Source: a phage. From it: a stretch of DNA of 64,000 nucleotides. A program made the position numbers and the translations under genes. Every line of letters starts with the position of its first letter. Position 1 is the first letter of the stretch. Positions 45,496 to 56,629 of the stretch are shown in pieces. The notes beneath the pieces are model-generated. The model made no database searches and had not been told where the DNA came from. It saw nothing but the letters and a program-made list of their open reading frames with translations. The DNA lies in sequence record NC_111505.1; one strand, written 5' to 3'.

Positions 45496-45534
45496 AACGA
45501 AAAAACCCCGCAGCTATACAGCTAACGGGGCGGG
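45496..45534 (-). terminator. terminator-like hairpin after ORF 45587-45856
   Basis: Minus strand CCCCG-(15-nt loop)-CGGGG followed by TTTTTTCGTTT. Confidence 0.4.
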
Positions 45535-45586
45535 TTAAAATTGAGTAACCTAAATAGATCGAAACTAACTAAAAGGAGACTAATAC

Positions 45587-45856
45587 TTATCGAGGCACTC
45601 GGTGGATGATTCTAACAGTAACTGCATTTTCATTCATCAAGTATGCATCTACATCTCTGTAAATATAAAACTTCTGCTCACTATCAACAACACAAGCTAC
45701 CGCCCCTTCAGAGTTGTCTTCAAAAAAGACCACCACTGCATCGCAGCTGAGTTCATGATATGACTCTCGAAGATTTACAGCCAGAGGATTGAAATCGTCA
45801 CGAAAATCTACAGTATTGGTTGGATTTACACGCTCTACAATTTTAAGTGTATACAT
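45587..45856 (-). CDS. hypothetical protein (89 aa)
   Basis: ORF track; terminator-like hairpin downstream. Confidence 0.3.
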   Translation of the reverse strand: MYTLKIVERVNPTNTVDFRDDFNPLAVNLRESYHELSCDAVVVFFEDNSEGAVACVVDSEQKFYIYRDVDAYLMNENAVTVRIIHRVPR

Positions 45857-45902
45857 TTTAAAGGTTCCTTTTGTGTGTATATGTTTAAAGTATAACTAAA
45901 GG

Positions 45903-45948
45903 TGGTCTCCACGGAGTGATTCGAACACTCGACCTCCTGATCCCAAAG
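45903..45948 (-). tRNA. 3' half of split tRNA-like gene: anticodon loop (UGG, Pro-like), variable loop, T-arm, acceptor 3' strand and CCA
   Basis: Minus-strand CTTTGGGATCAGGAGGTCGAGTGTTCGAATCACTCCGTGGAGACCA: T-arm GAGTG/TTCGAAT/CACTC, acceptor CGTGGAG, encoded CCA. Confidence 0.5.
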
Positions 45949-46290
45949 TTATGGTAGTTCTAAAAGTCCTGCATGTACGGCAGCATGACAATTTCTACAA
46001 AGTAATACACAGTTTTTAATTTCATTATCAATTCTTTGCAGACTCCAACCTCTCATTTGAGCAAATTTAGAGTCTTTAATTTTAGGATCTAAATGGTGAA
46101 TATCTAAAGAAACAATCCATTTATCGAACCCACAATTGATACATTTACCGCCTAACTTGTCTACAGCATACTGTCGTTTCTGCCTCCCAAGATTCATGGT
46201 GTACTCATTGTGACATTTCCCACATATAGTCTTTTTATGACCATAAAATTTACATGGATCTTCTTCCCCACAACGACTGCATTTGTGCAT
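45949..46290 (-). CDS. HNH endonuclease with Zn-ribbon (113 aa) lying between two halves of a tRNA-like gene
   Basis: CxxC...CxxC plus HNH motif (DIHHLDPKIKDS...NCVLLCRNCH); ATG at 46288-46290, stop at 45949-45951. Confidence 0.75.
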   Translation of the reverse strand: MHKCSRCGEEDPCKFYGHKKTICGKCHNEYTMNLGRQKRQYAVDKLGGKCINCGFDKWIVSLDIHHLDPKIKDSKFAQMRGWSLQRIDNEIKNCVLLCRNCHAAVHAGLLELP

Positions 46291-46300
46291 CTTTGATTAT

Positions 46301-46325
46301 CTCTACCAAGCTGAGCTACGCGGAG
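46301..46325 (-). tRNA. 5' half of split tRNA-like gene: acceptor 5' strand and D-arm
   Basis: Minus-strand CTCCGCGTAGCTCAGCTTGGTAGAG; acceptor CTCCGCG pairs with CGTGGAG of the 3' half (six Watson-Crick pairs plus one G-U). Confidence 0.5.
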
Positions 46326-46336
46326 TATTTATAATT

Positions 46337-46411
46337 TGGTGGCCCTGGGTGGAATTGAACCACCGTCTGGCGATTATGAGTCGCTTGCTTGAACCTTCCA
46401 GCTACAGGGCC
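46337..46411 (-). tRNA. tRNA-Met (anticodon CAU; initiator, elongator or Ile-lysidine not distinguished)
   Basis: Hand-folded cloverleaf: acceptor GGCCCTG/CAGGGCC, anticodon loop CTCATAA, T-arm GGTGG/TTCAATT/CCACC, CCA encoded. Confidence 0.7.
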
Positions 46412-46412
46412 A

Positions 46413-46488
46413 TGGTGCTGATGGCAGGACTTGAACCTGCAACCTATTGATTACAAATCAATTGCACTGCCAATTGTGCTACATCAGC
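46413..46488 (-). tRNA. tRNA-Thr (anticodon UGU)
   Basis: Acceptor GCTGATG/CATCAGC, D-stem GCAC/GTGC, anticodon stem ATTGA/TCAAT with loop TTTGTAA, T-arm GCAGG/TTCAAGT/CCTGC, CCA encoded. Confidence 0.75.
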
Positions 46489-46492
46489 AAAA

Positions 46493-46591
46493 GGTGCTAG
46501 GTGATGGAATCGAACCATCTATGTATTCAACGACTACCTCGTCTATTTTCAGGATTAAAAATCCTCGCCCTTGCCAAAGGGCTTACCTAGC
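46493..46591 (-). tRNA. atypical tRNA-like element (~97 nt), anticodon ambiguous (possibly UUU)
   Basis: Good acceptor (GCTAGGT/ACCTAGC), D-arm (GCCC/GGGC) and T-arm (GATGG/TTCGATT/CCATC), but anticodon arm is a near-palindrome (AGGATTTTTAATCCT) and about 30 nt lie between anticodon arm and T-arm. Confidence 0.4.
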
Positions 46592-46689
46592 GCAATATGT
46601 TGACCATGTGGCTAGTCGGCGATGACGACTGTAACATTTGATAATCCGGTTCTGCTTCCGGCTTTCGCTTAATTACAAGGTCAACAATG

Positions 46690-46780
46690 TGGCGGAGAGT
46701 AATGGAATCGAACCATCATCGAGTCATCCTCAACGGGACGGTTTTCAAGACCGCTTGAGCACCATTGCTCCCTACCCTCC
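46690..46780 (-). tRNA. tRNA-Ser (anticodon UGA), long variable arm
   Basis: Acceptor GGAGGGT/ACTCTCC, anticodon stem GCGGT/ACCGT with loop CTTGAAA, T-loop TTCGATT, CCA encoded; 91 nt. Confidence 0.65.
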
Positions 46781-46894
46781 TTTATAAATTACACTGATAA
46801 TGACACTGATTTTCGAGCAGTTAGTGACTAGTATAAACGACGATAAACATCAATGCCATTATCTGTATGATTTATGCATTTAAAAATATAAATT

Positions 46895-46981
46895 TGGTGG
46901 GGAGTGGTGGAGTCGAACCACCCGAGTCGCAATGACAATAGATTTACAGTCTACACCGCTACCTCTACGGGATAACTCCCC
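46895..46981 (-). tRNA. tRNA-Tyr (anticodon GUA), long variable arm
   Basis: Acceptor GGGGAGT/ACTCCCC, anticodon loop CTGTAAA, T-arm GGTGG/TTCGACT/CCACC, CCA encoded; 87 nt. Confidence 0.7.
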
Positions 46982-46985
46982 AATT

Positions 46986-47060
46986 TGGCACCCCGTACTG
47001 GACTCGAACCAGTGTCAACGGCTTAGAAGGCCGCTGCTTTATCCACTAAGCTAACAGGGC
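46986..47060 (-). tRNA. tRNA-Arg (anticodon UCU)
   Basis: Acceptor GCCCTGT/ACGGGGT (two G-U), D-stem GCTT/AAGC, anticodon stem GCGGC/GCCGT with loop CTTCTAA, T-arm ACTGG/TTCGAGT/CCAGT, CCA encoded. Confidence 0.7.
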
Positions 47061-47118
47061 ACTGGGTGGCTTTCTTTTACACCTGAGCCGCCAGAAAAGG
47101 TGGGAGACCATGTTTACA

Positions 47119-47147
47119 ATATTACACTGTTAAGCAAAGTTTGTCAA
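47119..47147 (-). promoter_or_regulatory. sigma70-like promoter upstream of tRNA cluster
   Basis: Minus strand TTGACA (47142-47147), 17-nt spacer, TAATAT (47119-47124). Confidence 0.5.
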
Positions 47148-47156
47148 GAAAATATT

Positions 47157-47495
47157 TTAACTATTGCCAACAGGCTGTATCTCTGTGGTAAATGGCATAA
47201 AAGGTGCTGGTTTTTCAGCCTCTTCTACTACCACCTCTTCCTCTTCACCAAACATCTCATCATATTCTTCCTGCATTCGGTCTGCCTTATCAAGGACATA
47301 CTCTGCAATGCTTTGACGAATATTTTGCTTGGTTTTCGGATCCAACATCAGCTCTCTTAAAACTTTGTGAGCTTCTGGAACCATCGCTATAAAAGATTCC
47401 TTCATATCAAGAATGTTCTTCTCTAGCTGAATGGCGTTGGACTCCTCTTTCAGAGGTCTGCCTCTACGGCGACGCTTTTTAGTTGTATCCGCCAT
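47157..47495 (-). CDS. hypothetical small basic/acidic protein with AT-hook-like motif (112 aa)
   Basis: Start ATG 47493-47495 preceded by GGAGGA; N-terminal KKRRRRGRP then acidic C-terminus; the ORF-track 5' extension lies in GC-rich non-coding sequence. Confidence 0.45.
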   Translation of the reverse strand: MADTTKKRRRRGRPLKEESNAIQLEKNILDMKESFIAMVPEAHKVLRELMLDPKTKQNIRQSIAEYVLDKADRMQEEYDEMFGEEEEVVVEEAEKPAPFMPFTTEIQPVGNS

Positions 47496-47499
47496 GTTT

Positions 47500-47780
47500 C
47501 CTCCATTATCACGTGATAGGTGGATTTTATCACGGCAAATACTGATTGTCAAGTTCGCCGCAGGGTGGTATTCCCTGCGACTTGCCCAGCGTCCTAGACC
47601 AGCAAGACCCAACAAGTGGGTTACCAGAGACCCATTACCGCGCTTTGGCTCGACCTTATTACAGGTTGGCTGGGGTCACATCGTCATGTGCTGGCTGCCC
47701 CTACCATTTTAAGTGTGGTGCACTATCAAGCCCTCTAAGGGGAACTCAGCCTTCTCCGAACCCTGTTTCAAAGCATCCGG
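47500..47780 (-). ncRNA. GC-rich structured non-coding region (candidate leader or small RNA)
   Basis: Locally GC-rich relative to flanks; perfect 7-bp hairpin CGCAGGG/CCCTGCG at 47569-47589; the only ORFs here are plus-strand ORFs in the six-frame track (47431-47712, 47546-47860) that do not look coding. Confidence 0.3.
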
Positions 47781-47840
47781 AGATAAAGCCATCAAACTCA
47801 TCTTTAAATTGGATATTCATCATGATACACGAAAACAACC

Positions 47841-48083
47841 TCATTGTAAAGCACAAATAAATAAAACATACTTAATTTGTTTGTTATCGGGCTCAGGGTA
47901 GAAGTAGAAGATCTTGCTATCACCAATCTGAACACCACCATCCCAACAACATAAACCATAACCCGTATTCATACAAGCTAAGTCGTTGGCAAAATCTATT
48001 GCATCATCTAGTGCACGAAATTCACCTTCATCTTCTAAATAATCCTCATTCATGGAACGGAAAACGAGCTTAACCTTAAACAT
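47841..48083 (-). CDS. hypothetical protein (80 aa)
   Basis: ORF track. Confidence 0.3.
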   Translation of the reverse strand: MFKVKLVFRSMNEDYLEDEGEFRALDDAIDFANDLACMNTGYGLCCWDGGVQIGDSKIFYFYPEPDNKQIKYVLFICALQ

Positions 48084-48159
48084 AGCATTACCTGTAGACC
48101 TCGTAAGTTAAAATTGTATCACATCATATTGCAGATCTTATCAGGTAACATTATTTTTG

Positions 48160-48348
48160 TCAACAGATTCCGGCCTTATCCCTCCTGTCTGCGTATTCTT
48201 TAATCGCAACCTCACCTGCATTGGTAACCAGATCTTCAAAGTAATTCTCAAGCTCCTCGTCAATGTCCGGTGACCAGCTCTTTTTCCTGTCAGTGTGAAT
48301 TGCAGACCTGTTGAACTTATTACAGTTCTTTGCTACCGGATTGTTCAT
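48160..48348 (-). CDS. hypothetical protein (62 aa)
   Basis: ORF track. Confidence 0.25.
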   Translation of the reverse strand: MNNPVAKNCNKFNRSAIHTDRKKSWSPDIDEELENYFEDLVTNAGEVAIKEYADRRDKAGIC

Positions 48349-48358
48349 TAAGCTCTCC

Positions 48359-48937
48359 TCAACGTTCGTAGTAAATCTTATTCAACATTACCTCATCGTT
48401 TGCAGAAAGGATATCAAGATATGCATCACCAAATCTGCCTGCAACAACCTCTGCATGATACATCACTTCGTCAACATCGTCAAGAGTGATAACCGGATGA
48501 CCATATCTTTCTGAATATTGCCTCAGGGTGCGATGTAACGAGTCGTCATCATATGCAGACTTTTTAATATCACAAACACGACGAATGGCCTTGATGTCGA
48601 AAAAACCTGTGCGATACCACCCAAGAAAAAAGTTCCGTGTGGTGTCAACATCTACATCAATACCATCAAGAACCTTATCTACAAGATAGCTGTCATCCTT
48701 TGGACCAGCGTCCTTAGTGCGAATGTAGTTGCCATCTTTTCCAGGCGATAGCTCCTTCTCATCACCAACCTGCATGCCATCATTTGGCGGTGTTAGCCAC
48801 TTATCCGGATGCTTACGATCACGAGCGTTAGAATGATTACGCTGGAAACCTGGCTTCCACTTGAAAGTTTTCTCCATCTGTTCTTCATTCTGATAACGTT
48901 TTGCAATCTTTTCGCGGTCATCTTTGCGTGAACTCAT
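48359..48937 (-). CDS. hypothetical protein (192 aa)
   Basis: ORF track; first gene downstream of the long regulatory intergenic region. Confidence 0.35.
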   Translation of the reverse strand: MSSRKDDREKIAKRYQNEEQMEKTFKWKPGFQRNHSNARDRKHPDKWLTPPNDGMQVGDEKELSPGKDGNYIRTKDAGPKDDSYLVDKVLDGIDVDVDTTRNFFLGWYRTGFFDIKAIRRVCDIKKSAYDDDSLHRTLRQYSERYGHPVITLDDVDEVMYHAEVVAGRFGDAYLDILSANDEVMLNKIYYER

Positions 48938-49039
48938 AACTGCCTCCTCTTCAAGTTATAGAAAAACTCACTGTATCGCTTTGTAACGAGCTTTTCTATC
49001 AAACTGGTGCGATTGCCTTACTTGGTATAGTTTACGCAG

Positions 49040-49310
49040 CTGTGTGGCGATTTAGGGGCCTTCCTGTCCGTTTCCACACATAAACTTTAACCAAACTCGC
49101 GCGGGAGGCTCTCAACCGACTCCTTACGGCGCTGGCAAGCTTTCGTCGGTGGCCCACATTAGTGCTCGGCATTTGGCCTGCGCTATCGCTTCGCTCCCAC
49201 ACATGTTAACAGTCCTGCATGTATGCACTCCTGTTATTGTGTGCACTATGGAGGCCCGGCATCTCGCCCCTCGTAGGCGAGTGCCAATGAGGGGCCGACA
49301 CTACCAATAG
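49040..49310 (-). ncRNA. GC-rich structured non-coding region (candidate leader or small RNA)
   Basis: No ORF of 60 aa or more on either strand across 48938-49598; nested hairpins (CTCGCC/GGCGAG, CCCCTC/GAGGGG at 49263-49295); GC-rich island in AT-rich surroundings. Confidence 0.3.
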
Positions 49311-49440
49311 TAAGTAATAAATTTAAAACATGGTACTTAGGATCTAGTATATTCTACATAAGTTAAGTATATGTACTTTAGTACCATAAGTACTAGATCT
49401 TTTATTTTTTATTATTTAGTTATTTTAGTTATATTCTTTA
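49310..49440. promoter_or_regulatory. AT-rich segment with nested inverted repeats (candidate promoter/origin region)
   Basis: Inverted repeats such as GATCTAGTA / TACTAGATC and GGTACT / AGTACC within very AT-rich DNA between the GC-rich island and the repeat array. Confidence 0.35.
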
Positions 49441-49441
49441 T

Positions 49442-49525
49442 GTGTCCGTATCACGGACAGTTAGTGTCCGTATTACGGGCAGATGTGTCCGCGTGACGGA
49501 CAGTAGTGTCCGTATCACGGACAGT
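49442..49525. repeat. four tandem copies of a 19-bp palindromic site (operator/iteron-like)
   Basis: GTGTCCGTATCACGGACAG (49442-49460), GTGTCCGTATTACGGGCAG (49464-49482), GTGTCCGCGTGACGGACAG (49486-49504), GTGTCCGTATCACGGACAG (49507-49525); 21-22 bp period; each an inverted repeat. Confidence 0.7.
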
Positions 49526-49598
49526 TACTACCCTCTGCTCTGGGATGGACATAAAACATACGAATCCTTATAGTACAGATATTTAAGTTTTTACTGGT

Positions 49599-49949
49599 CT
49601 AACCAGTTGTTGACATTCGAATAACCTCTTCTGGTGGCAAAACTTTGGAAAATGTGCACCTTTTACCTCTCCCTTGTGTGGATATTTCAACCACTCCTGC
49701 ACATTCTAAAGTTTTAACGCACGCTGCTGCTTTTGTTTTCTTTATCCCAACATCTGCTGCAATTTTCCTTGTGCTGGGTGTGAAGCGTGAACTTCCTCCA
49801 AGCTTATACCAGTTGTGCAGGTAGCAGTATACGATCTTGTCATACAAGTCAAGAATAACAACCTCCCCAGTTGTGTCATTCAAAACTTTTGACATAGACA
49901 GTATTTCAAGGGGGACTTTAAGATATAGCAGCTTATCCCCATCTTTCAT
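49599..49949 (-). CDS. putative DNA-binding protein with helix-turn-helix (116 aa)
   Basis: Segment TRKIAADVGIKKTKAAACVKTLECAGVV resembles a winged-helix recognition region; adjacent to the repeat array. Confidence 0.35.
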   Translation of the reverse strand: MKDGDKLLYLKVPLEILSMSKVLNDTTGEVVILDLYDKIVYCYLHNWYKLGGSSRFTPSTRKIAADVGIKKTKAAACVKTLECAGVVEISTQGRGKRCTFSKVLPPEEVIRMSTTG

Positions 49950-49996
49950 ATCTCCTGATTCTCCTTGTGTGGCAATTTTCTTTAAAATAGCAGGGA

Positions 49997-50551
49997 TTAC
50001 TCACCGCTGTCAATAGCAAAACTCATTGCAATACGGTATGCCTCTTCTAATGGTAAGAGTCTCCCCCACACATCCCAACCGACATCAAACTGCCTGCCAA
50101 ACAACTGCTGTGTGGTTCCGTGAGCATGACCGAACAGTTGGACTGATCCGTGAGGCTTTCTGTTCCACTTTGCAAACTGGTAATGGCTCATACAGATCAA
50201 ATTCTTGTTGTGGCGAAGCTCGTAATAATCTACAACCTCATGACCGAACTCTTTCATAATTCTGACAGTCGTTCTTGTGTCATGGTTACCACGAACAAGA
50301 ATAATATGTCCGTTCAACATATTTAGAACATCTGGAAGCAATTTGTTGATATTCTTATCATTAGTGCACGCAATATCCCCCAAGTGAAACACAGTGTCTG
50401 CAGGTGACACAACAGAGTTCCACTTGGTGATGATTCCCGCATTCATACTGTCAAGATTGTGATCATACTGAGATCTGTGTTTTTGACATGAGTCGAACTC
50501 CATTACCCGCTGGTGGAGAAAGTGTGTGTCGCTTGTTACAAAGTATTTCAT
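49997..50551 (-). CDS. calcineurin-like metallophosphoesterase (candidate RNA 3'-end phosphatase)
   Basis: Motifs DTHF, HLGDIA, GNHD, FGHAHG; real start MKYFVTSD at 50549-50551, 7 nt after the kinase stop. Confidence 0.65.
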   Translation of the reverse strand: MKYFVTSDTHFLHQRVMEFDSCQKHRSQYDHNLDSMNAGIITKWNSVVSPADTVFHLGDIACTNDKNINKLLPDVLNMLNGHIILVRGNHDTRTTVRIMKEFGHEVVDYYELRHNKNLICMSHYQFAKWNRKPHGSVQLFGHAHGTTQQLFGRQFDVGWDVWGRLLPLEEAYRIAMSFAIDSGE

Positions 50552-50558
50552 ACATTCC

Positions 50559-50969
50559 TCATTTAAGTTTAATGCAGTTTTTAAGCTGGCGTTCCATACG
50601 ATCCACAACCCTGTCTGGAACATCATGAATGCTTTTATTACCATGGCGGTTTTCAACCACGATCACGGTATAACTATATCCATGACTGATCGCCATGTCA
50701 ATATATTCTTGCACATATTTTTCTTTTGTAAACGTATTACTTACCACGATACGGTCGTAGCCCATACGCATCATATCTTCTACGTTATCTTTGCACCATT
50801 TTGCTGCAAGTGTTACTTTACTTGCATCCCAATTGTAATTGCCGTCATCGTCGTACCAGAACATATCGTTCTCAAAATGTGGATACAGACCTTCTAAAGA
50901 TAGCGCATTTGCCAGTGTTGATTTGCCAGACCCTGGTAGACCACGCACGATATATAGCATTTTAGACAT
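50559..50969 (-). CDS. polynucleotide 5'-kinase-like P-loop protein (137 aa)
   Basis: Walker A GLPGSGKST; layout resembles T4 Pnk kinase domain (IVVSNTFT..., ...HDVPDRVV...); start ATG 50967-50969 with GGAGAG upstream. Confidence 0.6.
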   Translation of the reverse strand: MSKMLYIVRGLPGSGKSTLANALSLEGLYPHFENDMFWYDDDGNYNWDASKVTLAAKWCKDNVEDMMRMGYDRIVVSNTFTKEKYVQEYIDMAISHGYSYTVIVVENRHGNKSIHDVPDRVVDRMERQLKNCIKLK

Positions 50970-51029
50970 AGTAACTCTCCGTTTTAATTTTAATGATAGT
51001 ATACCTAACTGTTTTGTTAATTTCAAGTG

Positions 51030-51058
51030 TTGACACCAGGTTATTTGTGTGGCAGAAT
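51030..51058 (+). promoter_or_regulatory. candidate promoter for the ligase-like gene
   Basis: TTGACA 51030-51035, 17-nt spacer, weak -10 CAGAAT. Confidence 0.3.
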
Positions 51059-51087
51059 AAAGGGACAAAATGACAAATGAGGAATGT

Positions 51088-52005
51088 ATGATGAAGTATT
51101 TTAATGCAGACGACCTGGTTGACAAAGGTCTTGTAACCAGCAGATATTACCCAGATCTTGGATTAAAGATCTACAAATATGCCAGAAAAGTATTCTACAA
51201 CAATTTATGGCATTTGTCTCCGCGTTTACTAGAGTGCCGAGGCATTGTTGTCGGTAATGAAGGAAATGTTGTGGCATGGCCCTTCACAAAAGTGTTTAAT
51301 TTGGGAGAAAACTCCACCAACCTGCCTGACAATAAACTTGTGACGGCGGTAGAGAAAAAGAACGGATTCCTTGGTGTGGTATCATCTCATAAAGGTGAAC
51401 TATTGTTTTCAACAACCGGGTCTCTTGATTCTCCATATTGTAACCTTGCAAAGGAAACCATCCAGGAGCAATGTGGTAATTTAGATCTCATCAAAAAGGT
51501 TATGGGCCATGAAAACATGACATTCATGTTTGAAATTTGTCACCCTTCAGATCCGCATATTGTTCAGGAAGACCATGGCGCATATTTGATAGGTTGCAGA
51601 TATAACGATTCTGGAATAATGCTACCAGAAGCAGCTTTAGATGGGATTGCCAAATACCTTGGTGCAAAACGTCCTCACACTGTGCGTGAAATTCCGTTCA
51701 GCTATGCAAAAGAATTAGCTGCAGAAACAAGAGGTGAAGGGTATATGATTCGTAAGCCTTACTACCCTTATGATCTGCAGCTGAAGATCAAGTCTCCATA
51801 CTATTTGGCACGGAAGGCCGTAATGAGGGGTAAAGCTTGGAAGATTTGGGATGATGATATCTTTAAACGTATTGACGAAGAGTTTTACGGCATGGTAAAC
51901 TTCATTCGTAACAATTACACAGAAGATGTGTGGAACTGCCTCCTAGAGCAGGAACGCCGTGAGATACTTGACTGCTATTTCCACAACGAGGACTATATGC
52001 AATGA
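51088..52005 (+). CDS. nucleotidyltransferase-type ligase, RNA-ligase-like (start 51070, 51088 or 51091)
   Basis: Ligase motifs I (KKNG), III (FEICHP), IV (EGYMIRK), V (LKIKS); motif IV/V flavour resembles Rnl2-type RNA ligases; divergent from kinase/phosphoesterase pair. Confidence 0.5.
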   Translation: MMKYFNADDLVDKGLVTSRYYPDLGLKIYKYARKVFYNNLWHLSPRLLECRGIVVGNEGNVVAWPFTKVFNLGENSTNLPDNKLVTAVEKKNGFLGVVSSHKGELLFSTTGSLDSPYCNLAKETIQEQCGNLDLIKKVMGHENMTFMFEICHPSDPHIVQEDHGAYLIGCRYNDSGIMLPEAALDGIAKYLGAKRPHTVREIPFSYAKELAAETRGEGYMIRKPYYPYDLQLKIKSPYYLARKAVMRGKAWKIWDDDIFKRIDEEFYGMVNFIRNNYTEDVWNCLLEQERREILDCYFHNEDYMQ

Positions 52006-52352
52006 AGAAGTTGATTGTGTGGCTGGATGACTTGAGAGATCCGTCAAATTATGGGCTCCCAGATGCTCTTTGGCTAAAGAATTCCTCTGAGTTTATGGAT
52101 TTTATTAACGATAAGGGAAAGCTCTACAGGCGCGTTTCTGAGTGGCACATGGACAACGACCTTGGAGAGGTATTTGAAGGGTACGATTGCCTATCTATGC
52201 TGGAGGAAAAATTTGTATTTGGTAAGCCTCCTGTAGTTGACAACGTGAAGATTTTCGTGCATACTTCTAACCCATCAGCTGCTCGTAAATTCATGCTTGC
52301 TGCTGACTCGTTTAAAAAGTTTGGAATAGAGATTAAACAAAACATCTACTGA
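52002..52352 (+). CDS. hypothetical protein with receiver/Rossmann-like residue pattern (116 aa)
   Basis: ORF track; start overlaps ligase stop (ATGA); pattern LIVWLDD ... D ... VHTSNP; no confident family. Confidence 0.3.
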   Translation: MKKLIVWLDDLRDPSNYGLPDALWLKNSSEFMDFINDKGKLYRRVSEWHMDNDLGEVFEGYDCLSMLEEKFVFGKPPVVDNVKIFVHTSNPSAARKFMLAADSFKKFGIEIKQNIY

Positions 52353-52360
52353 GGACACTT

Positions 52361-53122
52361 ATGCGACGACTGATCATTATCTCCGGTGCTGGTTTGAGCG
52401 CTGAATCTGGTATCCCAACTTTCCGATCTGGTGGCACTGCAATGTGGGAGAATTTCAGCATCGATGAGGTGTGTAACATCCACACCTTTGCCAAGAACTA
52501 CTATAAGGTTCATGACTTTTACAATGCACGGCGTGTAGCTCTTGGCAGTGTTGATCCTAACCTTGCACATCTCCGGATCGCTGAGTGGTATTCCCGCTGG
52601 TCTGGTCGTGTGATTAACCTGACCACCAATGTAGATGATTTGCTGGAGCGTGCTGGTGTAAAACATGAAGATATTTTACATGTCCACGGATATTTGCCAG
52701 AAATAGTCTACGAGGATGATGAAGGGAGTAACGTCATTAAAGACATTGGATACTCTGAGGTAGATGCAAGCAAGTATACTTGGGTTAAGCCTAATGTAGT
52801 GTTCTTCGGAGAAGTAGCTCCAAAGTATACAGACATGTATGACCTGTTGACTTCTCTGACGAGCAATGATATGGTTATCCTTGTAGGGTGCTCCAACACA
52901 GTTATCAATTTTAACTGGGAGCTATTCCCTGCCTGTAATAAGGGGACCAAACTGCTGATCGTTAACAAATACGACTCACAGCATTTAGGGGAGAATGGCA
53001 TTTCACGTAGTGACATTTACCAGTATGAGGATCGCGGCATCCCAGTTTGGTTTAACGGGGCTGTTGACGCTTTCTCTGATAAAACATTCATTGACATCGT
53101 AGAAAACTTTATGGAACTGTAA
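52361..53122 (+). CDS. Sir2-family (sirtuin-like) NAD-dependent protein
   Basis: Canonical sirtuin motifs: ISGAGLSAESGIPTFR, TTNVDDLLERAG, HVHG, VVFFGE, ILVGCS; SD GAGGA 5 nt upstream of ATG. Confidence 0.8.
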   Translation: MRRLIIISGAGLSAESGIPTFRSGGTAMWENFSIDEVCNIHTFAKNYYKVHDFYNARRVALGSVDPNLAHLRIAEWYSRWSGRVINLTTNVDDLLERAGVKHEDILHVHGYLPEIVYEDDEGSNVIKDIGYSEVDASKYTWVKPNVVFFGEVAPKYTDMYDLLTSLTSNDMVILVGCSNTVINFNWELFPACNKGTKLLIVNKYDSQHLGENGISRSDIYQYEDRGIPVWFNGAVDAFSDKTFIDIVENFMEL

Positions 53123-53136
53123 GCGGAGGCCTTTTA

Positions 53137-53850
53137 ATGCTGAATACTAAACTGATTGACAACTTGGAAAAACTGTCTCAGCCTGAAAACTACCTTTGGT
53201 CTGCCAACTGGGTGGAAAATTGGAACCGTGTAGCAGCTAAAGTGAAAAAATCATACACACCATTCGAACTTCAGCTGAGTTTCATTGAGGAAGAGTTCAA
53301 TGAAGTTTTGGAAGAGTTGGAGAAAGGTGATGGTGGGGATCATCTCCTAAAAGAGGCCTGCGATCTTCACGTTGTCACAAGTTATGCCGCTTATCTTGTT
53401 AACGATAACCATGAAAAGTGGTCAAACCTGTTTGATAATCCGCGAGGTCTTAAGTTTAAGATCGGTGAATTTTATGATACATTGATCGCTGCGAAAAATA
53501 CCTCTAAGCAAAGAGCGTCTGCTTACCGCTTAGCAGAGTTGTCAACAGCTTTGCTGTTCCAGCTTCGCGGCGATGTGTGCGGGATGATGCGTAAGGTTCT
53601 CAAATCGAATGACAGCAAGTTTGCACGGGTCAACCATCTACGGTATTCACACGGTGCCAGTGCAGATATGCCTGCTGAACAACTCATCGAGTTGGAGATT
53701 AAAGATCTTGAGCGACGCTTTGATGGTCGATATGAAGGTTTTGTTGCTAAGGAAGAATTCTACAACGGAAATAAAGTTATCATATTCCTCGACAGTAAAG
53801 GTAAGATTATGAAGCCTTCAAGCTTCAAGGATGTAACAGAATATATTTAA
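53137..53850 (+). CDS. MazG-like nucleotide pyrophosphohydrolase domain protein (237 aa)
   Basis: ExxE...ExxD-type arrangement (IEEEFNEVLEELEKGD...LLKEACDL); C-terminal half unassigned. Confidence 0.4.
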   Translation: MLNTKLIDNLEKLSQPENYLWSANWVENWNRVAAKVKKSYTPFELQLSFIEEEFNEVLEELEKGDGGDHLLKEACDLHVVTSYAAYLVNDNHEKWSNLFDNPRGLKFKIGEFYDTLIAAKNTSKQRASAYRLAELSTALLFQLRGDVCGMMRKVLKSNDSKFARVNHLRYSHGASADMPAEQLIELEIKDLERRFDGRYEGFVAKEEFYNGNKVIIFLDSKGKIMKPSSFKDVTEYI

Positions 53851-53856
53851 CAACAT

Positions 53857-53886
53857 AGCCGGGGCGATCCCGGCTTTACTTGTTTC
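53857..53886 (+). terminator. rho-independent terminator
   Basis: Hairpin AGCCGGG-GCGAT-CCCGGCT followed by TTACTTGTTT. Confidence 0.5.
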
Positions 53887-53914
53887 GGAAAGTATGCAAG
53901 TGAGGTAGAAAGTT

Positions 53915-54223
53915 ATGTACAAGCACTCCAGAGACCTTGAAAACGATGCTGTGTTTGGAGATCAGATGAAAGAATTGGTTAAACTTATAGGTAGGATAGA
54001 GGATAAGTTTGACACTAAGATCTACATCGACAGCAAAGTATTCAACCACAAAATATGGACAAATCTGTGTGTTGGACTACATGGAGATAAGGATGTGGTA
54101 AATTTAGTTGTAATTAAGTTCATAGTGTGGCAGAATAGAACCATAAGTTATTACGATCCGCACCTACTTGTTTACCCGATAAAAGATCTATTAGAGAAGG
54201 AGGACTGCAATGCCGTTATTTAA
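53915..54223 (+). CDS. hypothetical protein (102 aa)
   Basis: ORF track. Confidence 0.3.
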   Translation: MYKHSRDLENDAVFGDQMKELVKLIGRIEDKFDTKIYIDSKVFNHKIWTNLCVGLHGDKDVVNLVVIKFIVWQNRTISYYDPHLLVYPIKDLLEKEDCNAVI

Positions 54224-54479
54224 TCTTGCTAAACCTGTAGAAGCACACCAGTTTGATGGAAGCTCTTCATCAGTATCTGATCTGCAACGGTGGATTGATA
54301 CAGGTGTGTTTACATCGTCACCTGTTCGAACCAGAGATATTCTTCGCATGTGTGAGCTTGTCGAGCCGTTTGGTAACCTTGTCTTGTACCAAGGGGATTG
54401 GTTAGTTGACTTTATGGGAGACTGGTTGGTAATGAGCAAAGAAGAGATGTTTAAAATTTTTAAGGAAGAGGCTGAGTAA
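54210..54479 (+). CDS. hypothetical protein (89 aa)
   Basis: ORF track; stop overlaps ligase start (TAATG). Confidence 0.3.
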   Translation: MPLFNLAKPVEAHQFDGSSSSVSDLQRWIDTGVFTSSPVRTRDILRMCELVEPFGNLVLYQGDWLVDFMGDWLVMSKEEMFKIFKEEAE

Positions 54480-55762
54480 TGCATCAGATCAAAACAACAC
54501 TGTACGCACTGAACAAAGATGGCAGCTACCAACAGTGGAAAGTATTCACGGATGGTGATAAGGTTATCGTAGAGTTTGGCAAGCTTGATGGTAAACTGCA
54601 ATACAAAGAGACGATCTGCACACCTAAGAACGTTGGTCGTGCCAATGAAACTACAGCTGAGCAACAGGCTGAGCTGGAAGCGATCAGTAAGTGGGAAAAA
54701 CAAGTCCGTCTTGGGTATGTTGAAAATATGGAAGATTGCGAGCAGGGTGTTGACCTTTTACCCATGCTGGTGCATGACTACCTGAAGCGTGGAAAGGCAC
54801 TTAAATTACCTTGCTGGATCTTGCGTAAGTTAGATGGCCTTCGTCTACTTGTTGTTTTCCAAAATGGTGAGCCTAAATTTATTTCCCGTGGTAATAAGTC
54901 CTACCCTATTCAAGGAAAGCTTCTGGAGCAACTTCGTTCTTTCCACTTCACCACCGGTATTAAACAGCTCGACGGAGAGATCTATATTCATGGCCTGCCT
55001 CTGCAGAAAATAGTGTCTCTTGCTAAACGGTGGCGCACACAGGAAGAGATTCAGGCCGAGATCGATAAAGACTACGAGGCAGATAAAAAACGCCGTCATG
55101 CCGCAATTAAGGCAGGCTTATCAACATACAAAAACTTCAACAAGGTAGATATTCCTGTTGATGTTGAGCCTGTTCGTGATGATTTGCGTTACGGTGGGTA
55201 CTGTAGCTACGATCTAGAGTATCACATTTTTGATATTCCTAGTGACAAGGTGTGGTGGGATCCAGAAACAGAATCTGGACGCTGCAAGGATCTTATGGAT
55301 GTAGAAGATACCATTACCACTCTGATGCTTGACCATATCAAGGTTGTTGACGCAGAGCTTGCGTACACAGTTGATCATTGCGAAGAATCTGTCGGTGTAT
55401 TCATGTCCGAAGGGTATGAAGGTACTATCATGCGTAACTTCTGTGGTAAATACGAATACGGTCAGCGAACATCTGAAGCATTGAAATGGAAAAAGTTCAA
55501 CGATGCTGAGGTGAAAGTTATTGACGTTGAGAAAGATAAGAATGATGAAGGTGTTCTTATCTGTGTTGACAAGGAAGGTATTGTTGTTAAAATGAAGATG
55601 AAAGGTACGCACGAGGAGCGTAGCTATGACAGGATGCAGGAAATGATCGGCAAGTTTGTCACCTTCAAATATCAAGCAAGGACAGAAGACAACAACTACC
55701 AATTCCCTGTCGGTATCTGCGTCCGAAATGTTAACCCAGACACTTGGGAGGTGCTGGAATAA
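54479..55762 (+). CDS. ATP-dependent DNA ligase (427 aa)
   Basis: Motif I ILRKLDGLR (KxDG), motif III GEIYIHG, motif IV EGYEGTIMR, motif V LKWKKF; C-terminal OB-like region. Confidence 0.65.
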   Translation: MHQIKTTLYALNKDGSYQQWKVFTDGDKVIVEFGKLDGKLQYKETICTPKNVGRANETTAEQQAELEAISKWEKQVRLGYVENMEDCEQGVDLLPMLVHDYLKRGKALKLPCWILRKLDGLRLLVVFQNGEPKFISRGNKSYPIQGKLLEQLRSFHFTTGIKQLDGEIYIHGLPLQKIVSLAKRWRTQEEIQAEIDKDYEADKKRRHAAIKAGLSTYKNFNKVDIPVDVEPVRDDLRYGGYCSYDLEYHIFDIPSDKVWWDPETESGRCKDLMDVEDTITTLMLDHIKVVDAELAYTVDHCEESVGVFMSEGYEGTIMRNFCGKYEYGQRTSEALKWKKFNDAEVKVIDVEKDKNDEGVLICVDKEGIVVKMKMKGTHEERSYDRMQEMIGKFVTFKYQARTEDNNYQFPVGICVRNVNPDTWEVLE

Positions 55763-55912
55763 TTTAGGTATGTTTAGTAGCTAACGGTAGCCAATTGAAT
55801 GAGTGTTTTCAATTGGCACCTGCATATGCCCTGATATTCGCACTGTGCAATATACCCATGCTGTACAGTGTTGTTGATCGGATATGCTATAAGTAGATTG
55901 GAGAGTAAAAAA

Positions 55913-56629
55913 ATGATTAATTTCTTCTTCAATGATAATTTTGCATTTTGGTACAAAGATGGGGAGCTAGTTTGGACAAAGAATCATTATAGAGGCCGAG
56001 GTAAAAATCAACTCTTCATAAAAGCTGGCACAAAAGCTGGTTGTAATGATGCACAAGGGTATGTTATAATCAACTCTCATAAAGGTGGTGATAAGAAGCG
56101 TCATAGAATTATTTACGACATGTTTTATAACTCTTTAACAAAAAACTTTCTTGTCAGGCATTTAAATGATATAAAAGGCCAGGATAATATAGAAAATCTT
56201 TCTATGGGCACCTACAGTGATAACAACAAGGACCGTATAAGAAATAATTTACTCCCGAAAAATAACCCGCACGGTAACTTAGGAGTTTATAAGAAATGTG
56301 GTTTATGGTATGCAGTATATAACACCCTCGAAGGAGATAGGTTTGCTGGGTACTTTAAGACCAAAGATGAGGCTGTAGAGGCAAGAAAACAGCTAGTTTC
56401 AGGTACTTATAAAGGCAAAATACTAAAACTTAATAACACATCTGGGTGTACAGGTGTTAAATGGAGACACGATACTGACAAGTGGCAAGTTCAGATTGCT
56501 GAAAACAGCAAAAGGTATCATTTGGGGCAATACACGGAGTGGTGGGATGCTGTATGCGTCAGAAAATCCGCAGAATATGCAAAACATGATGATTCGTTGG
56601 AAGAGTGGTTTAATCGGAGGTTTAAATGA
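55913..56629 (+). CDS. HNH-AP2 homing endonuclease
   Basis: HNH motif (VRHLNDIKGQDNIENL) followed by two AP2-like modules (GVYKKCGLWYAVY...; TGVKWRHDTDKWQVQIAE...); ATG 55913 with GGAGAG upstream. Confidence 0.7.
   Translation: MINFFFNDNFAFWYKDGELVWTKNHYRGRGKNQLFIKAGTKAGCNDAQGYVIINSHKGGDKKRHRIIYDMFYNSLTKNFLVRHLNDIKGQDNIENLSMGTYSDNNKDRIRNNLLPKNNPHGNLGVYKKCGLWYAVYNTLEGDRFAGYFKTKDEAVEARKQLVSGTYKGKILKLNNTSGCTGVKWRHDTDKWQVQIAENSKRYHLGQYTEWWDAVCVRKSAEYAKHDDSLEEWFNRRFK

Follow-up and report, generated by a model that had tools for sequence, protein, structure and literature searches.

The 64,000-nucleotide stretch of phage DNA analysed here (sequence record NC_111505.1; referred to as the window) carries, between positions 49997 and 53850, six genes arranged in two divergent operons. 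On in silico evidence we think it likely that these genes form a phage module for the repair of broken RNA, split over the two operons so that the RNA ends would be healed by the products of the leftward operon and sealed by the ligase of the rightward one. Three of the genes, encoding a kinase, a phosphoesterase and a ligase, had been picked out in an earlier note on the same DNA, which is correct on the enzyme families and the probable role; its view of the module holds for these three genes but is incomplete in extent, since the genes for a cREC protein, a sirtuin and a MazG-like enzyme (52002-53850) in the ligase operon were overlooked. The locus comprises the following features.

49997-50551, minus strand: phosphoesterase, open reading frame of 184 amino acids
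50559-50969, minus strand: P-loop kinase, open reading frame of 136 amino acids; predicted 5'-OH polynucleotide kinase
50970-51087, no strand: divergent intergenic region with back-to-back promoter-like sites, between the leftward (putative healing) and rightward (putative sealing) operons
51088-52005, plus strand: ATP-dependent RNA ligase, 305 amino acids; alternative start at 51070
52002-52352, plus strand: cREC (cyclic-phosphate-processing receiver-like) protein; PF20274 at 4.5e-14, phrog_1479 at 9e-35
52361-53122, plus strand: sirtuin (Sir2) homologue; PF02146 at 1e-26, phrog_2162 at 9e-109
53137-53850, plus strand: MazG-like all-alpha nucleoside triphosphate pyrophosphohydrolase; phrog_671 at 5e-22, without a Pfam match
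53857-53875, terminator-like on both strands: GC-rich hairpin, AGCCGGGGCGATCCCGGCT followed by a T-rich tail, at the end of the ligase operon

The stretch from 49500 to 52500 shows 99.3% identity to Escherichia phage ECP2303 and 96-99% identity to over 100 rV5-like (Vequintavirus) genomes. GenBank already annotates the products in these relatives as an RNA ligase, a phosphoesterase, and a polynucleotide kinase or an ATPase. By coordinate match, phage MaxBurger (MZ501093) is Bas54 of the BASEL collection. Because the Pfam and PHROG matches of the gene products range from 1e-6 to 2e-66 in E-value and the stretch is kept in more than 100 phages, the locus is not a product of chance.

The three reading frames reported earlier, 49997-50551, 50559-50969 and the plus-strand ligase frame that ends at 52005, are all present in the table of open reading frames, and the arrangement described for them is borne out. 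The TGA stop codon of the kinase gene (50561-50559) overlaps a GAGGA Shine-Dalgarno sequence (50560-50556) that stands 4 nt ahead of the phosphoesterase ATG (50551), an organization from which we take the two genes to be translationally coupled. The kinase and ligase genes diverge from a gap of 118 bp (50970-51087), in which the GC skew flips sign and two promoter-like sites stand back to back, TTGAAA-17-TATACT on the minus strand (51026-50998) and TTGACA-17-CAGAAT with a TG element on the plus strand (51030-51058), both recognized by consensus match only. For the ligase there are two candidate starts, ATG 51070, used in GenBank relatives, and ATG 51088, as in the earlier note. The latter is the better choice because the 17-nt context that precedes it, AAATGAGGAATGTATGA, is identical to that before the phosphoesterase start, and the BASEL annotation of Bas54 likewise gives a ligase gene of 918 nt, which corresponds to a start of the 51088 type. 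The rightward operon packs four genes closely together, beginning with that of the ligase: the ligase stop overlaps the start of the cREC gene (ATGA at 52002-52005), the sirtuin gene follows 8 nt after cREC, and the MazG-like gene 14 nt after the sirtuin gene. A scan of 45500-54500 against Rfam returned only tRNAs and one small RNA match at chance level.

Active sites of the ligase, phosphoesterase and kinase

Profiles and structure models were needed to place the ligase and the kinase, because single-sequence phmmer searches of the PDB sequences with these two proteins gave nothing useful. The ligase matches PF09511 at 8e-15 (55.7 bits, threshold 28.3) and scores 39.1 bits with the NCBIfam RnlA equivalog TIGR02308, below the cut-off of 242.25, so that we assign it to the broad family and not to the RnlA equivalogs. 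A profile of its family, built from 30 homologues of 41-49% identity, matches T4 Rnl1 at 5e-16; hhalign pairs the two at 98.1% probability over the adenylyltransferase domain only, the alignment ending at residue 242 of the ligase and 249 of T4 Rnl1; and the AlphaFold model has a pLDDT of 92.7. In an alignment of 115 family members, which underlies all invariance statements on the ligase that follow, the counterparts of T4 Rnl1 R54, K75, K99, G102, E159, E227, G228, K240 and K242 are invariant. The first two of these are R51 and K68 of the N-terminal subdomain, and K90/G93, E149, E217/G218 and K233/K235 align with T4 K99/G102, E159, E227/G228 and K240/K242, respectively. F70, which corresponds to T4 F77, is aromatic in 113 of the 115 sequences (F in 82, Y in 31, with H in the other 2). 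The C-domain, helical and about 70 amino acids long, has invariant residues of its own (K243, R247 and E264/E265), and its D263 and R290 are kept in 111 of the 115. With an Rnl1/Trl1 fold and invariant catalytic motifs, the protein justifies the earlier description as RNA-ligase-like, and the most fitting description is that of an Rnl1/Trl1-type RNA ligase that has its own C-domain.

The phosphoesterase passes the Pfam thresholds for Metallophos_2 and Metallophos and matches phrog_547 at 5e-51. All six metallophosphoesterase motifs (DxH, GD, GNH[DE], H, GH and GHxH) are present, and across 30 diverse homologues little or no variation is seen at D8/H10, D59, N89/H90/D91, H123 and H142/H144. The family profile matches Aquifex aq_1665 (1xm7), the sole solved close relative, at 5.6e-27. 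Lambda phosphatase, the PPP protein phosphatases and CthPnkp bear the signature GDxxDRG/GNHE, from which motif II (LGDIAC) and motif III (GNHD) of the phage protein differ, and the family profile matches no lambda-phosphatase or PPP structure at E <= 0.1. An assignment to the lambda/PPP protein Ser/Thr phosphatases, which the earlier note had named as an outcome that would speak against its reading, was considered and rejected, the motif II and motif III signatures of that type, as well as any profile match to it, being absent. We thus regard the protein as a complete binuclear metallophosphoesterase outside the lambda/protein-phosphatase type, in agreement with the earlier description of a calcineurin-type enzyme that is stand-alone and not of the HAD type. 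Binuclear metallophosphoesterases are capable of RNA 2',3'-cyclic phosphodiesterase activity, and the protein is predicted to heal RNA 3'-ends, either as a 2',3'-cyclic phosphodiesterase, as a 2'/3'-phosphatase, or as both.

The kinase belongs to a very large family of proteins of about 130 amino acids and matches Pfam AAA_33 at 2.7e-10 and the PHROG polynucleotide-kinase family at 3e-10. Structural comparison shows a fold closest to polynucleotide kinases, the best neighbours being T4 Pnk, at the top, together with PSTK and bacterial Pnkp kinases, and the top PDB sequence matches of the kinase profile are the stand-alone kinases of Mucorales. Invariant in the family are the Walker A motif GLPGSGKST (K16, S17), D35, N78/T79 and an ENRHG lid motif. 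When aligned by hhalign with the T4 kinase domain (95.9% probability; the numbering of the T4 sequence used agrees with the published K15, S16, D35 and R38), D35 falls on the catalytic D35 of T4. The Pnk-like label given earlier is upheld by this structural match and by the retained Walker A motif and D35, and the protein is predicted to be a 5'-OH polynucleotide kinase.

Conserved neighbourhood, domain fusions and flanking features

To describe the genomic context of the ligase family, we collected 80 viral contigs with ligase homologues (35-49% identity) and four others, searched these 84 loci with profile hidden Markov models of the ligase, kinase and phosphoesterase families, and dereplicated them at 70% ligase identity into 40 lineages. 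Of the 40 lineages, 34 encode the phosphoesterase in the flank of the ligase, and 32 encode the kinase there. Where a phosphoesterase is found it is always encoded on the strand of the ligase (68/68 loci), in 60 of the 68 within 1 kb, and the kinase (54 loci at E < 1e-10) shares that strand in all cases but one (53/54), with 49 within 1 kb. Most often the three genes abut in the order phosphoesterase, ligase, kinase. Divergence as in the window is an exception to this order and therefore represents a genus-level rearrangement.

The same partners also occur as domains of single proteins. Kinase-ligase fusions are found in nine of the 84 loci, and an exhaustive search of 1.8 billion cluster representatives (50% identity clusters) gave 481 ligase matches at E <= 1e-30, of which the top 150 include kinase-ligase, ligase-kinase and phosphoesterase-ligase fusions as well as about 25 three-domain kinase-metallophosphoesterase-ligase proteins of 700-810 amino acids (for example P0401, P0406 and P0436). 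The C-terminal ligase domain of the three-domain proteins bears every signature of the phage ligase family, and their healing domains are of the CthPnkp/lambda-phosphatase type (GDxVDRG/GNHE). The occurrence of such fusions argues strongly that one substrate is served by all three activities. The linkage of kinase, phosphatase and ligase functions that had been suggested for the window is found both in conserved neighbours and in fused proteins of other genomes. In overall architecture the three-domain proteins resemble Pnkp, but their ligase is Rnl1/Trl1-like rather than a member of the Rnl4 clade.

Other genes recur near the ligase in particular groups. In 15-16 related loci, among them those of the Pseudomonas-phage-like relatives L016, L017 and L004, the ligase-kinase pair has NAMPT-like and phosphoribosyl pyrophosphate (PRPP)-synthetase-like genes no more than about 3 kb away; in L004 and L017 they stand immediately downstream of the kinase. 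Since these genes of nicotinamide adenine dinucleotide (NAD) salvage stand beside a ligase without a sirtuin, the link to NAD recurs independently of the sirtuin. Among ligase lineages that lack the kinase (a subset of L050-L085), 23 loci have an HD_4 hydrolase and 18 a 'Swiss army knife' DSP-PTPase, both adjoining the phosphoesterase and ligase (for example L084 2928-3431 and L068 3132-3626); these two may be alternative end-healing enzymes.

The remaining genes of the rightward operon have a narrow distribution. The sirtuin, cREC and MazG genes, which are present in only 3-4 of the 40 ligase lineages (the sirtuin in 3), have been added specifically in the Vequintavirinae-like group, and it is only in the closest relatives that cREC adjoins the ligase. 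In the PDB, the sirtuin is most closely related to SIRT5 and CobB. Its GAGxS and TxNVD motifs and its catalytic His are retained, as is the class-III YxxR motif, which reads FYNARR and is shared with SIRT5/CobB; the zinc-ribbon cysteines are missing, only 29 residues taking the place of the SIRT5 zinc module. The sirtuin has been predicted to act on RNA 2'-phosphate with NAD+ in a KptA-like manner (Iyer et al. 2022, PMC9503650), and MazG is listed in the V5-type neighbourhood by the same authors.

A tRNA cluster, which the earlier note had placed a few kb away, is indeed found to the left of the module:

46337-47060, minus strand: tRNA gene cluster, six genes (ARAGORN, Rfam); context, outside both operons

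According to ARAGORN, Rfam and the annotation of a BASEL phage that is 99.5% identical, the cluster contains Met/Ile-CAU, Thr, a tRNA-Lys(UUU) of 97-99 nt, Ser, Tyr and Arg. The tRNA of 97-99 nt (46493-46591, minus strand) is unusual in having a long extra arm; it is left unassigned by ARAGORN, has an Rfam tRNA score of 37.5 bits, and is annotated as tRNA-Lys (codon AAA) in the BASEL phage. Its anticodon loop, UUUUUAA, gives the anticodon UUU, and tRNA-Lys with this anticodon is the isoacceptor cut by PrrC. Next to the cluster lies an HNH-like reading frame (45949-46290, minus strand), where the relative Bas59 has a tRNA-Pro gene; another HNH/homing-endonuclease-like frame is at 55868-56629 (plus strand).

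At 49442-49527 there are four tandem repeats of 21-22 bp, each holding a 17-bp palindrome, TGTCCGTATCACGGACA. They adjoin an AT-rich stretch (49300-49430) and lie just 3' of a helix-turn-helix gene (49599-49949) that PHROGs labels 'replication initiation protein', and the cumulative GC skew has its minimum near 50 kb; the region 49300-49527 might serve as an origin of replication or as an array of operators. Among the database records, 18 GenBank entries named 'Campylobacter phage' carry this E. coli rV5-like sequence, with Campylobacter jejuni given as host in 16 of the matching records and all matches but one at 90% identity or more, which looks like host mis-assignment or contamination.

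Proposed role and alternative explanations

The module would come into play when host ribotoxins (anticodon nucleases or other metal-independent RNases) cut tRNA or other RNA. The leftward operon would then heal the ends, the metallophosphoesterase opening or removing the cyclic phosphate and the P-loop kinase phosphorylating the 5'-OH, and the rightward operon would seal them, with the ligase adenylylating itself on K90, activating the 5'-phosphate and joining the ends. The cREC protein, the sirtuin and the MazG-like enzyme would probably handle the residual 2'-phosphate and the NAD-derived by-products. The sequences themselves show how the genes are organized, to which families and folds the proteins belong, that the active sites are intact, and that synteny and domain fusions link the genes; from this we infer the substrates, the order of these steps and the biological trigger, and thereby the mechanism of the module as a whole. 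As to the 3'-end chemistry, there is about an even chance that the ligase accepts T4-like ends (2'-OH, 3'-OH), and acceptance of Trl1-like ends (2'-phosphate, 3'-OH) appears possible but less probable.

In the HIDEN-SEQ preprint, which includes the 97%-identical Bas54, the genes bas54_0207 to bas54_0211 (sirtuin, cREC, ligase, kinase and phosphoesterase) tolerate transposon insertions in E. coli K-12. This dispensability in K-12 fits an accessory, host-conditional function in counter-defence.

Several observations weigh against a role in RNA repair. The insertions in Bas54 have no phenotype on K-12, no host that requires the module was identified (HIDEN-SEQ), and in the tabulated comparison with a uropathogenic isolate the genes are not depleted either (log2 fold change +0.13 to +0.43, q >= 0.75). 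In the literature searched, no experimental study of the module was found, the only relevant data being those of HIDEN-SEQ. The phosphoesterase has as its solved relative a structural-genomics protein, aq_1665, without known function, and the DNA nuclease PdeM is among its weak NCBIfam matches. In the kinase, the position of R38, a residue essential in T4 Pnk, is occupied by W38 and is aromatic family-wide, and R108, the invariant arginine of the lid (ENRHG), aligns with T4 R122 and not with R126, whose position is taken by K112, variable in the family. The ligase is without the C-terminal tRNA-specificity domain of T4 Rnl1 (about residues 255-374), and at motif Ia it has an invariant threonine (T110) where T4 Rnl1 has K119 and Trl1 has K169, the stretch reading STTGS in the ligase family and KSKGS in T4. 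This lysine, K119, is essential in T4 Rnl1.

Other explanations were considered as well. The kinase and phosphoesterase might act on small molecules, such as NAD or ADP-ribose derivatives or cyclic-nucleotide immune signals, with the ligase merely sharing an accessory island. NAD-related neighbours, namely the sirtuin here and the NAMPT and PRPP-synthetase-like genes beside the kinase in Pseudomonas-phage relatives, would suit such a role, as would the lack in the kinase of a counterpart to R38, which holds the oligonucleotide in T4 Pnk, and the term 'nucleotide kinase' used by Iyer et al. 2022 (PMC9503650). This is nevertheless very improbable in view of the fusions of kinase and ligase in both orders, of phosphoesterase and ligase, and of all three domains, and of the abutment of the genes on one strand in most lineages. 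The same fusions and synteny, which involve the RNA-type ligase and never a DNA ligase, also count against the possibility that the kinase and phosphoesterase clean 5'-OH and 3'-phosphate ends of DNA for the phage DNA ligase. An ATP-dependent DNA ligase is encoded 2.5 kb downstream (54479-55762), 30 of the 84 loci have a DNA ligase no more than 4 kb from the RNA ligase, T4 Pnkp acts on DNA too, and the phosphoesterase weakly matches PdeM and metallophosphoesterase (MPE) DNA nucleases; yet the PdeM match, at 20.6 bits, is far below its cut-off of 150, and we judge DNA end processing to be very improbable. The label 'RNA ligase and tail fiber protein attachment catalyst', which PHROG and GenBank inherited from T4 gp63, would suggest that the ligase is mainly a non-catalytic factor for tail-fibre attachment and is unrelated in function to the kinase and phosphoesterase. 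There is hardly any likelihood of this: the catalytic residues of the ligase are all invariant, its C-domain differs from that of gp63, its gene sits among early and nucleic-acid genes and is fused to healing enzymes elsewhere, and the Bas54 orthologue tolerates transposon insertions, whereas the N-terminal domain of T4 rnlA does not.

The alternative that deserves most attention remains within RNA repair and concerns the route. Instead of a T4-like pathway, the phosphoesterase or cREC might leave 2'-phosphate/3'-OH ends to be joined by a Trl1-like ligase, which would leave the 2'-phosphate at the junction, with the sirtuin transferring it to NAD+ in the manner of Tpt1/KptA and with cREC and the MazG-like enzyme degrading the resulting ADP-ribose cyclic phosphate; we regard this fungal-type route as a minority possibility. 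The fungal Trl1 ligase domain (Trl1-LIG) requires a 2'-phosphate, which it binds through the Asn of motif I, a His located nine residues beyond the motif III Glu, and Arg residues at +9/+12 after motif V, and in Chaetomium Trl1-LIG a sulfate that mimics the 2'-phosphate is bound by N150, H227, R334 and R337. Each of these has a possible equivalent in the phage family. N92 of motif I (KxNG) is invariant, where T4 Rnl1 has Asp; H157 is invariant and is placed by hhalign on S. cerevisiae H193, the equivalent of Chaetomium H227, where T4 Rnl1 has Ile; and the invariant K243 and R247, at +8/+12 after motif V, are candidate counterparts of the Trl1 arginines, matched by spacing alone as they lie outside the region aligned by hhalign. 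The Trl1 sequence used was checked at 17 positions against a table of its residues. The region of motif III, EICDPSDPHIV, resembles Trl1 (EYCDDSFEEHIL) more than T4 Rnl1 (FEFVAPTNRIVL), and the C-domain is short and helical, as in Trl1. These residues suggest that the ligase may have a 2'-phosphate pocket, and their match to Trl1, which would be a new point, is absent from the literature that we searched. Such a pocket would fit the logic of the operons, with healing on the left and with sealing, 2'-phosphate removal and by-product clean-up on the right; the ligase gene is translationally coupled to cREC, with the sirtuin gene next. In addition, when it carries a single mutation, the CthPnkp metallophosphoesterase converts a cyclic phosphate solely to the 2'-nucleoside monophosphate, and a Tpt1-like role of the sirtuin was proposed by Iyer et al. 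2022 (PMC9503650). On the other side, overall similarity of the ligase is slightly higher to T4 Rnl1, which does not join 2'-phosphate ends; the C-domains of the ligase and Trl1 are not alignable in sequence by hhalign; and K243 is a Lys instead of an Arg, with spacing that is off by one residue. Only 3/40 lineages have the sirtuin along with the ligase, yet the candidate pocket residues are invariant in all. A Tpt1/KptA-like reading frame was found neither in the window nor in the 84 related loci, a weak negative in view of the KptA query used. Taking both sides together, we propose only tentatively that the ligase represents a separate clade that combines an Rnl1-like core and its own C-domain of 70 amino acids with Trl1-like 2'-phosphate recognition, and that the two operons are a phage version of eukaryotic-type tRNA ligation, in which the host KptA would finish the reaction in phages without a sirtuin.

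Comparison with known RNA-repair systems

The split heal-and-seal module was already known in its gene content, being annotated in GenBank and predicted in 2022. Iyer, Burroughs, Anand, de Souza and Aravind (2022, PMC9503650) described a type-2 sirtuin RNA-repair neighbourhood, with Escherichia phage V5 and Proteus phage Mydo as prototypes, that consists of a sirtuin, a T4-like tRNA ligase, cREC, a nucleotide kinase, MazG and a calcineurin-like phosphoesterase, and predicted a function in RNA repair. This is the same locus, without any difference in content, as all six genes are found in 49997-53850. The difference is one of perspective: their description is centred on the sirtuin, with the phosphoesterase 'occasional', whereas a view centred on the ligase shows the phosphoesterase and kinase as constant partners (34 and 32 of 40 lineages). 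Nor is a healing enzyme of the calcineurin type a novelty, since calcineurin-like healing enzymes in phages were noted by the same group in a 2021 jumbo-phage paper and Clostridium thermocellum Pnkp provides a precedent.

RNA repair allows phages to counter immune systems that cleave tRNA or other RNA, and the split module is far more widespread than the T4 pair, with 481 cluster representatives at E <= 1e-30. In phage T4, Pnkp (PseT) and Rnl1 (RnlA) repair tRNA-Lys cut by the anticodon nuclease PrrC; to our knowledge, this is the only phage RNA-repair pair that has been worked out experimentally. The predicted activities of a 5' kinase, a 3' phosphoesterase and a single-stranded RNA ligase are shared with the T4 pair. 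The phage of the window differs in that its phosphoesterase, which comes from an uncharacterised metallophosphoesterase clade, is a stand-alone protein and not a HAD domain fused to the kinase, in that its ligase is without the tRNA-specificity C-domain and the motif Ia lysine and has Asn rather than Asp in motif I, and in that its kinase has no counterpart of R38; moreover, nothing in the T4 pathway corresponds to cREC, the sirtuin or MazG.

With the bacterial systems, Pnkp/Hen1 of Clostridium thermocellum and Pnkp1-Rnl-Hen1 of Capnocytophaga, the module shares a P-loop kinase, a phosphoesterase of the calcineurin superfamily and an ATP-dependent RNA ligase. In the phage, however, these three activities reside in separate polypeptides, the phosphoesterase is aq_1665/YfcE-like instead of the lambda-phosphatase type (GDxxDRG/GNHE), and no Hen1 methyltransferase occurs among the neighbours scanned.

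Features in common with the fungal and plant Trl1-Tpt1 pathway are the KxNG of motif I, the His after motif III, the basic pair after motif V and an adjacent NAD-using enzyme, and in Mucorales a split, 'sealing-only' ligase is accompanied by a stand-alone kinase, just as the phage kinase is a separate gene. In contrast to the fungal pathway, no Tpt1 was found in the window and no 2H cyclic phosphodiesterase domain among the neighbours; the phage ligase has no fused kinase and 2H cyclic phosphodiesterase, and a C-domain that is not homologous in sequence to the five-helix C-domain of the fungal enzyme; and its NAD-using enzyme is a sirtuin, a hypothetical 2'-phosphotransferase. The value of the module as found, already annotated and predicted, is confirmatory, with further interest in a possible ligase-sirtuin analogue of Trl1/Tpt1. 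If the fungal-type route were true, bacterial Tpt1/KptA homologues would gain a natural substrate that has long been missing, and the ligase and sirtuin would be the bacterial-virus analogue of the Trl1/Tpt1 pathway, which bears on why bacteria keep Tpt1/KptA.

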